The position numbers and the translations under genes are program-made. Shown here one piece after another: positions 46,167 through 48,090 of a stretch of DNA of 64,000 nt. The stretch comes from Dehalococcoidia bacterium (GTDB lineage Bacteria > Chloroflexota > Dehalococcoidia > UBA2979). The DNA lies in contig CBDHDI010000012.1 in the NCBI GenBank assembly GCA_965261685.1, positions 2,426-66,425 on the forward strand, read 5' to 3'. A model generated the notes under the pieces. That model saw nothing but the letters and a program-made list of their open reading frames with translations. It was not told the origin of the DNA and did no database searches. How positions within the stretch are numbered: the first letter of the stretch is position 1; every line of letters starts with the position of its first letter.

Positions 46167-47120
46167 GTGCCGCTGCTGCGACGCTCCTACGAGCGCTGGC
46201 GCGAGCTGGAGGCGGCGAGCGGCGAGCAGTTGCTGCACATCACCGGCTCGCTGGACATCGGCCCCGAGGACGGCATGGTCTTCCCCGGCTCGCTGCAATC
46301 CTGCATCGATCACGATCTGCCGCACGAGGCGCTGACCAGCGCCGAGCTGACGCAGCGCTTCCCGGCGTTGCGGGTCCCCGAGGACTGGATGGGCCTCCAT
46401 CAGCCGGACGGCGGCTTCGTGCTGTCGGAGCGCTGCATCGTCAACCACGTCTTCGCCGCGCAGGAGCGCGGCGGCGAGGTGCACGCCCGCGAGCAGGTGC
46501 TGGAGTGGCGCAGCAGCGGGGATGGCGTGCGGGTCGAGACCAGCCGGGGCTCGTACGAGGCGGGGGCGCTGGTCATCACCTCGGGCGCCTGGGCCGGGCC
46601 GCAGGCGCCCTCGCTGGACGGTCTGCTGACGCCGGAGCGGCAGGTGATGGGCTGGTTCCAGCCGAAGCGCCCGGAGCTGTTCGCGCTCGGAGCCTGCCCG
46701 GTGGTGATCGGCGAGTTCGAGGAGGGGCTGTACTACTCCTTCCCCGTGTTCGGCATCCCCGGCTTCAAGATCGGCAAGTTCCACCACCTCGGCGAGGCGA
46801 CGACCGCCGACGGCCTCGACCGCGACTGCCGGCCCGAGGACGAGGCCGTGCTCCGTCAGGCCGTCGCCCGCTACTTCCCCGAGGCGAACGGGCCGACGTT
46901 GTCCCTCAGGGCCTGCATGTTCACGAACACGCCGGATGAGCACTTCATCATCGACGCCCTCCCCGGCTCACCGAACGTCTTCGTGGCGGCGGGCTTCTCC
47001 GGCCACGGCTTCAAGTTCTGCAGCGTGGTCGGCGAGATCATGGCCGACCTCGCCACGCGCGGCGAGACGGACCACGACATCTCGCTCTTCCGCCTCGGCC
47101 GCTTCGAGGCGAGCGGCTAG
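46167..47120 (+). pseudogene. Sarcosine / N-methyltryptophan oxidase-like gene, 3' part
   Basis: VPLLRRSYERWRELE...RACMFTNTPDEHFIIDALPG...AAGFSGHGFKF (covalent-FAD Cys context). Confidence 0.8.
47044..47117. repeat. Perfect 74-bp direct repeat, copy 1 (3' end of the oxidase gene)
   Basis: ccgacctcgccacgcgcggcgagacggaccacgacatctcgctcttccgcctcggccgcttcgaggcgagcggc is identical at 48017..48090, checked base by base. Confidence 0.95.
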
Positions 47121-47122
47121 CC

Positions 47123-48001
47123 ATGGCCACGACCACCAGGACCTTCGAGCCTACGCACCGCCATGCGCGCGTGAACGGCATCCGCATGCACTACGTGGAA
47201 GCGGGCGAGGGGGAGCCGGTCGTCTTCCTGCACGGCTTCCCCGAGTGCTGGTACTCGTGGCGGCGGCAACTTCCGGCGCTGGCCGGGAGCTACCGAGTCA
47301 TCGCCCCTGACCTGCGGGGCTACCACGAGACGGAGGCGCGCCCTCCGTACGACAGTGGGACGCTGCAAGCGGACGTGCTCGGGCTCCTCGAGGCGCTGGG
47401 GCACCGCAGCGCGCACATCATCGGGCACGACGGGGGCGGGGCCGTCGCGTGGTTGCTCGCCATGAACCATACCGAGGCCGTGCGTTCGCTCGCGATCCTG
47501 AACATGCCCCACCCGGCCCTCTTTCGGGCGGGGCTGCGGAGCCTCGCGCAGCTCCGGCGGAGCTGGTATATCGCGTTCTTCCAGTTGCCCTGGCTGCCGG
47601 AACGGGTGCTCGCCTGGCACGGGTACCGGCCGCTCACGCGGGCGATCTTCCGGGGTATCCCCCCTGGCGAAGAGCGGACCAGGGATCTGGCCTTCTACCG
47701 CCAGAGCTGGCGAGAGCACGGGCTCACGGGCGGAATCAACTGGTACCGAGCCATCCCGCGCAGCCTTCAGCGCCTGCCCGACCCCATGCCCATCATCGAC
47801 ACGCCCACGACCATGATCTGGGGTGAGGACGATTTCGCGCTGGGGAAGAACCTGACGGTAGGGACGGAGCGCTACGTGCGCGATCTGGACCTGCACTACC
47901 TGCCGGGCGTCGGGCACTTCGTGCAGCAGGAAGCGCCGGACCGCGTGAACCAGCTGCTTCTCGCGCACCTGGAGCGTGCGGGGAGCGCCGGCCCTGCCTG
48001 A
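47123..48001 (+). CDS. Alpha/beta hydrolase (epoxide-hydrolase / haloalkane-dehalogenase-like)
   Basis: 292 aa with VNGIRMHYVEAGEGEPVVFLHGFPECWYSWRRQLPAL...IIGHDGGGAVAW. Confidence 0.9.
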   Translation: MATTTRTFEPTHRHARVNGIRMHYVEAGEGEPVVFLHGFPECWYSWRRQLPALAGSYRVIAPDLRGYHETEARPPYDSGTLQADVLGLLEALGHRSAHIIGHDGGGAVAWLLAMNHTEAVRSLAILNMPHPALFRAGLRSLAQLRRSWYIAFFQLPWLPERVLAWHGYRPLTRAIFRGIPPGEERTRDLAFYRQSWREHGLTGGINWYRAIPRSLQRLPDPMPIIDTPTTMIWGEDDFALGKNLTVGTERYVRDLDLHYLPGVGHFVQQEAPDRVNQLLLAHLERAGSAGPA

Positions 48002-48016
48002 GGACCACGAACACGC

Positions 48017-48090
48017 CCGACCTCGCCACGCGCGGCGAGACGGACCACGACATCTCGCTCTTCCGCCTCGGCCGCTTCGAGGCGAGCGGC
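48017..48090. repeat. Perfect 74-bp direct repeat, copy 2
   Basis: See 47044..47117. Here the oxidase reading frame would continue ...EASGDQGTSPGSRA-stop. Confidence 0.95.

Follow-up and report, generated by a model that had tools for sequence, protein, structure and literature searches.

A hydrolase gene between 74-bp repeats of an oxidase gene end: an old structural polymorphism in a clade of Chloroflexota

Several described processes leave an acquired segment between direct repeats of its target. Single-crossover integration of a circular DNA molecule carrying a fragment of the target (Campbell-type integration) is the basis of insertion-duplication mutagenesis. In the model of fork stalling and template switching or microhomology-mediated break-induced replication (FoSTeS/MMBIR), which is established mainly in eukaryotes and in Escherichia coli amplification systems and is defined by microhomologies, a copied segment is inserted and becomes flanked by a duplication where synthesis resumes behind the point of departure, stalling being favoured by secondary structure. 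The capture of DNA fragments at chromosomal breaks through non-homologous end joining (NHEJ) is documented in bacteria, the breaks in those cases being nuclease-made with 4-nt overhangs (Dupuy et al. 2019, NAR, PMC6379672). The present analysis concerns an 899-bp insert with a complete alpha/beta-hydrolase gene at the 3' end of an oxidase gene, located in a 64,000-nt stretch of contig CBDHDI010000012.1 of a Dehalococcoidia bacterium (hereafter the window).

Base-by-base comparison of the sequences at 47044-47117 and 48017-48090 indicated that they are identical at 74 of 74 positions; an exact repeat of this length cannot occur by chance in 64 kb. The identity ends sharply, the base next to the unit differing on either side. 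The 8 nt to the left of the unit match at 5 of 8 positions and extend the pair to 82 nt at 96% identity. Between the copies lie a TAG (47118-47120) that closes the oxidase frame, the dinucleotide CC, the hydrolase open reading frame (ORF; 47123-48001) and 15 nt, GGACCACGAACACGC. The hydrolase ORF is intact, encodes 292 aa and matches the Pfam families Abhydrolase_1 (3e-29) and Abhydrolase_6 (5e-23). Downstream of copy 2 the oxidase frame reads DQGTSPGSRA followed by a stop. The initial annotation of the window had all of these coordinates right, and its 74-nt identity, TAG, 2 nt and complete hydrolase gene were all reproduced. The TAG sits at the same position as the oxidase stops of two relatives (RFDARG-stop in L001 and RFEASG-stop in L084), and most oxidase orthologues stop 0-5 residues past RF. 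The hydrolase is the only domain-matching ORF in 47118-48016; Pfam searches and a repeat scan revealed neither transposase, integrase nor terminal inverted repeats in or at the insert, and no inverted-repeat pair brackets it.

The locus resembles the product of insertion-duplication in that a target fragment forms a direct repeat on both sides and loss is possible by recombination between the repeats; it differs in that there is no replicon, vector or circle here, the 899 bp being a single housekeeping-type gene. Direct target repeats also flank transposons, insertion sequences (IS) and elements with att repeats, and the upstream gene retains a complete 3' end in islands that target tRNA genes as it does here. 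Target-site duplications are typically of a fixed 2-15 bp, whereas 74 bp lies, to our knowledge, far past known transposase staggers. The insert has neither transposase nor inverted repeats, and an IS1380-type element in the same gene, 2.5 kb upstream, made a duplication of 5 bp; the initial annotation had likewise put 74 bp beyond any transposase duplication. Unlike site-specific integrative elements, neither the insert nor the adjacent genes encode a recombinase. Unlike an integron cassette, the hairpin-forming part (the 74 nt described below) belongs to the target, being single in alleles without the hydrolase, and not to the cassette; no IntI-like gene was found nearby with Pfam, and the 15 nt past the hydrolase stop are too short for attC. 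The similarities to NHEJ capture (PMC6379672) are a heterologous fragment, sharp junctions and the lack of recombinase and homology, and a target duplication would result if staggered ends were filled in. Extended junction homology is absent, identity ends abruptly, and the donor family resides in a cdsA-hydrolase-VTT locus. We know of no described stagger of 74 nt. With FoSTeS/MMBIR the locus would share a segment copied from elsewhere together with a flanking duplication.

Relatives of the window hydrolase with 95-97% identity were found in ENA long-read metagenome assemblies. Three of the contigs (L081, L082 and L083), from three different samples, each carry both repeat copies around the hydrolase gene and are 94-97% identical to the window in DNA over 42.2-48.7 kb, and 96.4-91.4% identical within the oxidase gene. 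Since the two copies recur on either side of this gene in three independent assemblies, the misassembly that the initial annotation had raised as a concern is excluded. Copy 1 and copy 2 differ by 4 nt in L081, 2 nt in L082, 1 nt in L083 and 0 nt in the window, whose copies have the most common base wherever the sites vary. Two more distant contigs, L084 and L085, are 88.6% identical in DNA to the window (12% divergence) and show the junction ...RFEASG-TAG-2 nt-ATG (TAGCGATGG); copy 2, the enolase-superfamily gene and PfkB are absent from both.

Comparison of the window with L084 (L081 was left out of the dN/dS analysis owing to an indel in that contig) gave synonymous divergences (dS) of 0.27 (hydrolase) and 0.30 (oxidase gene), with an omega of 0.27 for both. 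Because the junction is shared and the dS values are nearly equal, the oxidase and hydrolase genes were already joined in the common ancestor of the window and L084, and the hydrolase has been maintained by purifying selection since its insertion. The perfect identity of the copies had been taken to imply a recent event. This does not hold, as the filled state is common to lineages 3.6-8.6% diverged in the oxidase (L081-L083) and the junction is present at 12% divergence in L084 and L085 with equal dS of the two genes. Perfect identity is not a sign of youth here and fits homogenisation of the copies or chance retention.

In the filled contig L083 the oxidase stop TAG reads GAT (8044-8049), and the oxidase ORF, called with a length of 399 aa, continues into the hydrolase region. 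Either a genuine read-through or fusion or a long-read error accounts for this, and frameshifts occur in the hydrolase ORFs of L082 and L083 as well.

The initial annotation had further predicted an empty site with a long oxidase C-terminus, of which DQGTSPGSRA would be a remnant. A search with the reconstructed oxidase bearing this hypothetical long tail returned both forms, a short one of 381 aa (P0122 and P0123) and a long-tailed one (P0124, P0125 and P0121). The long-tailed proteins end in ...EASGDQGASLGSRA (P0124), ...EASGGQGASPGAR (P0125) and ...EASGDQGASPA (P0121), which are variants of the predicted tail. Their metagenome contigs (L088, L087 and L089/L090, respectively) carry a single 74-nt copy and no hydrolase gene in the same neighbourhood as the filled alleles, ABC-F ... 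PfkB-DinB, so that the predicted empty site was recovered. At the contig level the oxidase ends in ...RFEASGDQGASLGSRA-stop in L088, ...GGQGASPGAR-stop in L087 and ...GDQGASPA-stop in L089 and L090, and L088 keeps the enolase start codon region behind the tail. The direct repeats beside the insert correspond to one contiguous stretch of the uninterrupted target, the order being oxidase-B-tail in L087-L090 and B-insert-B in the filled alleles, where B is the 74-nt unit; together the two kinds of allele support an insertion flanked by a target duplication, as had been proposed. We also considered the tail as a conserved functional C-terminus and rejected this, since its sequence and stop position vary across alleles; a translated spacer describes it better.

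Analysis of distant Dehalococcoidia revealed an enolase-superfamily gene at or just past the oxidase stop in L025, L029, L014 and L010, with the oxidase stop and the enolase start overlapping in L025 and L029; in L023 the enolase gene lies about 0.8 kb or less downstream of the oxidase with one ORF between. As these deep relatives keep the oxidase-enolase adjacency, an enolase gene behind the oxidase gene represents the older order, into which the hydrolase came later. Neither the window hydrolase nor P0122 had an exact-sequence match on record, and a scan of genome contigs returned only relatives with at most 81% aa identity, the closest two without conserved downstream synteny; the genome-contig relatives served as deep outgroups only. 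Comparison of the invariant 19-nt end of the repeat with metagenome contigs gave at least 120 chance matches, none of those listed being homologous to the locus; a pattern of this length is too short for GC-rich metagenomes.

The phylogenetic tree of the oxidase DNA showed that the clade contains both filled and empty alleles and that these are intermingled: the filled L084 branched first, the filled L082 paired with the empty L088, and the filled alleles of the window, L081 and L083 paired with the empty L089 and L090. Whether an allele has the hydrolase is not tied to its type of downstream sequence, tail type 1 being found in L083 (filled) and L087 (empty) and tail type 2 in the window, L081 and L082 (filled) and in L088 (empty). 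The filled L083 and the empty L088 come from one sample, ERZ25069191. Because identical junctions cannot arise twice, the switches between filled and empty states must be homologous events, probably either recombination between the 74-bp copies, which would restore the long-tail oxidase exactly, or allelic replacement via the flanks.

Within four genomes copy 1 and copy 2 differ at 0-4 positions (mean 1.75), while orthologous copies 2 differ by a mean of 3.67 and either copy differs from copy 1 of L084 by 6-8. Position 54 is A in both copies of L082, the remaining three genomes each having G there in their two copies, and L083 has G at positions 17 and 44 in copy 1 and copy 2 alike. The paralogous copies are accordingly more alike within a genome than are orthologous copies between genomes, which is the pattern of concerted evolution, as judged from four genomes of low coverage. 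This argues well, if not conclusively, for gene conversion keeping the two copies near-identical.

Homologues of the hydrolase with 77-82% aa identity occur in a conserved cluster of housekeeping genes, in the order rpsB-tsf-pyrH-frr-uppS-cdsA-hydrolase-VTT/DedA, on three independent contigs of related Chloroflexota (L086, L091 and L092), and the closest of these home-locus copies are 77-80% identical to the window hydrolase in DNA. The homology between the window and the home locus is confined essentially to the ORF. Upstream of it about 5 nt are possibly common (TAGCC, with TAGAGCC in L086), and downstream about 3-15 nt, in the frame of the overlapping DedA start. As the homology is limited essentially to the ORF, the insert is a near ORF-sized excerpt, with which the oxidase TAG arrived. 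The short possible matches at the joints (TAG..CC before the ATG and CGACC at the right joint) allow no judgement when the home copies are only 77-80% identical.

Folding of the 74-nt unit as single-stranded DNA indicated a structure that closes end to end, the first bases pairing with the last (-22 kcal/mol, z -2.8). Equally stable and closed 74-nt windows make up 0.6% of the reconstructed locus and 1.0% of the whole window. The hairpin is also present in the empty alleles (L087 11070-11143, L088 1587-1660 and L089 11070-11143), and the orthologous 74 nt of the outgroups L001, L003 and L025 show no such fold. The duplicated unit, which lies within the coding sequence of the oxidase, is a hairpin specific to this clade, and it hints at a staggered break.

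On balance we lean towards a single old non-homologous insertion with target duplication, followed by conversion and switching, as the origin of the locus. In the ancestor of this Chloroflexota clade the MSOX-like oxidase gene would have been followed directly by the enolase-superfamily gene. A near ORF-sized hydrolase copy, reaching from about 5 nt before the ATG to about 15 nt past the stop and having its donor home between cdsA and a DedA/VTT gene, would have been joined into the end of the oxidase gene. The target would have been opened at two points 74 nt apart, which would place those 74 nt on both sides of the insert. The upstream copy completes the oxidase and is closed by the insert-borne TAG, while its downstream counterpart no longer codes for protein and precedes the old tail and the enolase as a relic. 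As the two breakpoints lie at the base of the hairpin, we favour a staggered break or a replication stall there, which would then have been resolved either by fill-in with capture through end joining or by a template switch; two nicks at the hairpin base, or a stall with a template switch, would yield exactly a 74-bp duplication around a captured fragment.

Several points weigh against this scenario. The coincidence of the repeat with the hairpin was spotted post hoc, with a P of about 0.01, and the hairpin was rejected as a common trait of the three repeat-bracketed sites in the window, the units of the other two being open and of average stability. The evidence for conversion consists of 8-13 variable sites in four low-coverage long-read contigs with frameshifts, some of the variants possibly being sequencing errors, and the low divergence between copy 1 and copy 2 could instead reflect a copy 2 that arose later than the joining of oxidase and hydrolase. 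With the closest home-locus copies at only 77-80% DNA identity, junction microhomology is unreadable. The stop after copy 1 falls at the same codon as in L001 and L084, which would be a moderate coincidence under random insertion. Neither Ku nor LigD, on which NHEJ capture would depend, was seen in the 64-kb window analysed, no search having been aimed at them. In the literature on homology-facilitated illegitimate recombination with duplication and on the remodelling of duplications, nothing directly applicable was found.

The initial annotation had left the choice between Campbell-type integration and a duplication-insertion event. Its duplication around an insert stands, and the repeat-insert-repeat geometry is exactly that of a small circle with the hydrolase and 74 bp of oxidase homology entering by a single homologous crossover. 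The interleaving of alleles and the occurrence of filled L083 and empty L088 in ERZ25069191 would be expected under excision and re-integration through the 74-bp repeats, and the copies of L081 (G17/C44 in copy 1, C17/G44 in copy 2) show the reciprocal pattern of one crossover between G/G and C/C repeats. The L081 pattern, however, consists of two sites in a low-coverage contig, and the interleaving is explained equally by ordinary allelic replacement through long flanks. Such a circle would have 973 bp, with the hydrolase as its sole gene and no replication or transfer function. A circle carrying the 74 bp needs a prior repeat-insert-repeat structure, so it can explain spread or re-integration and not the origin, as which we regard Campbell-type integration as unlikely. 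We hold a history in two steps to be about equally improbable. In it an oxidase-hydrolase pair without copy 2, as in L084, would first have replaced the tail-enolase-PfkB block, and the block, enolase through PfkB, would then have been re-acquired from an empty relative, starting 74 nt before the end of its oxidase gene. The joint would be homologous on the PfkB/DinB side and illegitimate on the other (homology-facilitated illegitimate recombination), copy 2 being the stump of a second oxidase allele. This would account for the absence of copy 2, enolase and PfkB from the deepest filled lineage (L084/L085) and, without requiring gene conversion, for two copies that are close to each other and 6-8 nt from copy 1 of L084; the region past copy 2 is moreover a rearrangement hotspot that differs in every contig. 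It requires, on the other hand, two independent illegitimate events plus a replacement, and a deletion explains L084 more simply. Between the hydrolase stop and copy 2 lies a 13-nt filler (ACCACGAACACGC) that is unlike the sequence after the L084 hydrolase, and position 54, alike within and different between genomes, still needs at least one concerted change.

A large tandem duplication in which the oxidase end became fused to the start of the hydrolase home locus, with an internal deletion leaving the hydrolase ORF and the final 74 nt of a second oxidase copy, would give the order A-B-C-B-D through two illegitimate joints and leave the donor at its home locus, where it is present in related genomes; a plain 650-bp tandem duplication in the window shows that duplications form in this lineage. 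It demands, however, that the home locus lay upstream in the same orientation, and it gives no reason for breakpoints at the hairpin base. At 77-80% DNA identity to the home copies the duplication would also need to predate the clade by far, unless the donor was foreign, and we consider this course doubtful, somewhat more so than the two preceding ones. An assembly mis-join or an engineered junction was suggested by the perfect identity of the copies and by the adjoining NheI and NcoI sites (GCTAGC/CCATGG) in GGCTAGCCATGG. It was dropped as next to inconceivable, since the junction occurs in three other, independent environmental assemblies from different samples with natural variation and reads TAGCGATGG, without an NcoI site, in L084. 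The structural polymorphism is real, well resolved and old, and it is a generic product of recombination or repair and not a new kind of element.

The locus provides a clean natural case in which filled alleles, empty alleles and a deletion derivative were all recovered. It shows a bacterial operon gaining a single gene without the machinery of a mobile element, and it shows the fate of a long target duplication, in which the interrupted gene was preserved, the copies were homogenised and the gain is reversible. For genome scans it carries the caution that perfect identity of short repeats is no clock. If hairpins at breakpoints proved general, they would indicate that bacteria can gain gene-sized insertions by a route guided by DNA structure. 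For now, the case is a fairly ordinary old structural polymorphism and a modest contribution to the genome plasticity of uncultured soil Chloroflexota.

The initial annotation had stated that the same architecture recurs at two further sites of the window. This applies to the topology, in which an extra gene separates a gene 3' end from a repeat of that end, while the hairpin of the present locus is not shared and the pairs are 94-95% identical. Around a 208-aa membrane-protein ORF about 130 nt are repeated at 21875-22003 and 22652-22781 with 5 mismatches and 1 indel; the repeated block covers the ends of two convergent genes, one for an alpha/beta-hydrolase and one phosphotriesterase-like, and another phosphotriesterase fragment, of 55 nt, was observed at 22552-22606. 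A minus-strand gene has its 3' end, including the stop, repeated on the other side of an MFS transporter gene that occupies 28508-29752, the two copies lying at 28397-28493 and 29803-29897. This pair is 94% identical over its first 49 nt and then decays with indels, and the site has the topology of the present locus and is older. A rather improbable, though coherent, extension would be that the clade gains single genes recurrently and independently of recombinases: a hairpin at a gene 3' end would be opened at the stem base, an ORF-sized copy pasted in and the hairpin duplicated, leaving the target intact and the cassette excisable and re-insertable, and the three inserts in the window would be products of different ages.

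The features of the locus in the window are collected in Table 1.

Table 1. Features of the oxidase-hydrolase locus and its surroundings, in window coordinates
Feature	Position	Strand	Description
Oxidase, N-terminal part	44312..44503	+	MSOX-like FAD oxidase, DAO family; Pfam DAO 1e-8; cut by IS
IS1380-type IS	44504..46161	+	transposase ORF 44615-45940; Pfam DDE_Tnp_1_4 8e-57
Oxidase, C-terminal part	46167..47120	+	Pfam DAO 5e-36; TAG at 47118-47120
Repeat copy 1	47044..47117	+	final 74 nt of oxidase coding sequence; exact match to 48017-48090; folds end to end as single-stranded DNA
Insert, 899 bp	47118..48016	+	TAG, CC, hydrolase ORF, 15 nt; Pfam Abhydrolase_1/6
Repeat copy 2	48017..48090	+	non-coding relic of oxidase 3' end; in L081-L083, absent from L084/L085
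Relic tail (DQGTSPGSRA-stop)	48091..48125	+	former oxidase C-terminal extension; still translated in empty-site alleles
Enolase-superfamily (MR_MLE) N-terminal fragment	48158..48710	+	Pfam MR_MLE_N 3e-10; homology to L081/L082 stops at 48710
IS debris	48711..50459	.	replaces remainder of enolase; homology to relatives returns at ~50460

Analysis of the oxidase gene further revealed that it is interrupted between ...HPSY and VPLLRR by the IS1380-type element, which the initial annotation had missed and which is flanked by a 5-bp target duplication, CTTAC, at 44499-44503 and 46162-46166. Rejoined in frame (44312-44503 and 46167-47120) the oxidase has 381 aa and is 96-97% identical to P0122 and P0123. 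The element is missing from L081-L083, in which window positions 44503 and 46164 are contiguous. Since it is absent from all related contigs, its insertion is a recent inactivation in this genome. Within the debris that follows the enolase fragment a minus-strand N-terminal helix-turn-helix remnant of an IS481/IS3-like transposase runs from 48874 to about 48706 (Pfam HTH_28/HTH_23/HTH_Tnp_1), and an IS110-family transposase lies on the plus strand at 49105-50421 (Pfam DEDD_Tnp_IS110/Transposase_20). The locus is now decaying in this genome, with the oxidase split, the enolase truncated and the hydrolase ORF intact. The enolase-PfkB stretch is a rearrangement hotspot; the interval differs in the contig of each relative, containing RCC1 genes, a DDE transposase, a SNIPE nuclease or unknown ORFs.

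A 60-nt fragment at 42071-42130 matches a stretch inside the oxidase (46334-46393) at 80% identity and adjoins a gene at 40689-41885, which presumably belongs to the Fic type, as it encodes the motif HPFGDGNGR. Both are inserted between the ABC-F gene and a YgjP-like gene, two genes that lie side by side in L087 and L089, and may represent another captured-fragment event.

Elsewhere in the window, the region 1979-3102 is a plain tandem duplication with a unit of about 650 bp and 95% identity, in which copy 1 is apparently frameshifted and copy 2 (2575-3096) is intact; judging from its sequence we take the duplicated gene to be a small VOC/glyoxalase-like one. Diverged paralogues with 60-80% DNA similarity in conserved blocks were observed at 256-552, 1478-1803, 19256-19606, 20565-20864, 34744-34942 and 36177-36315, and these are presumably family III CoA-transferase genes.

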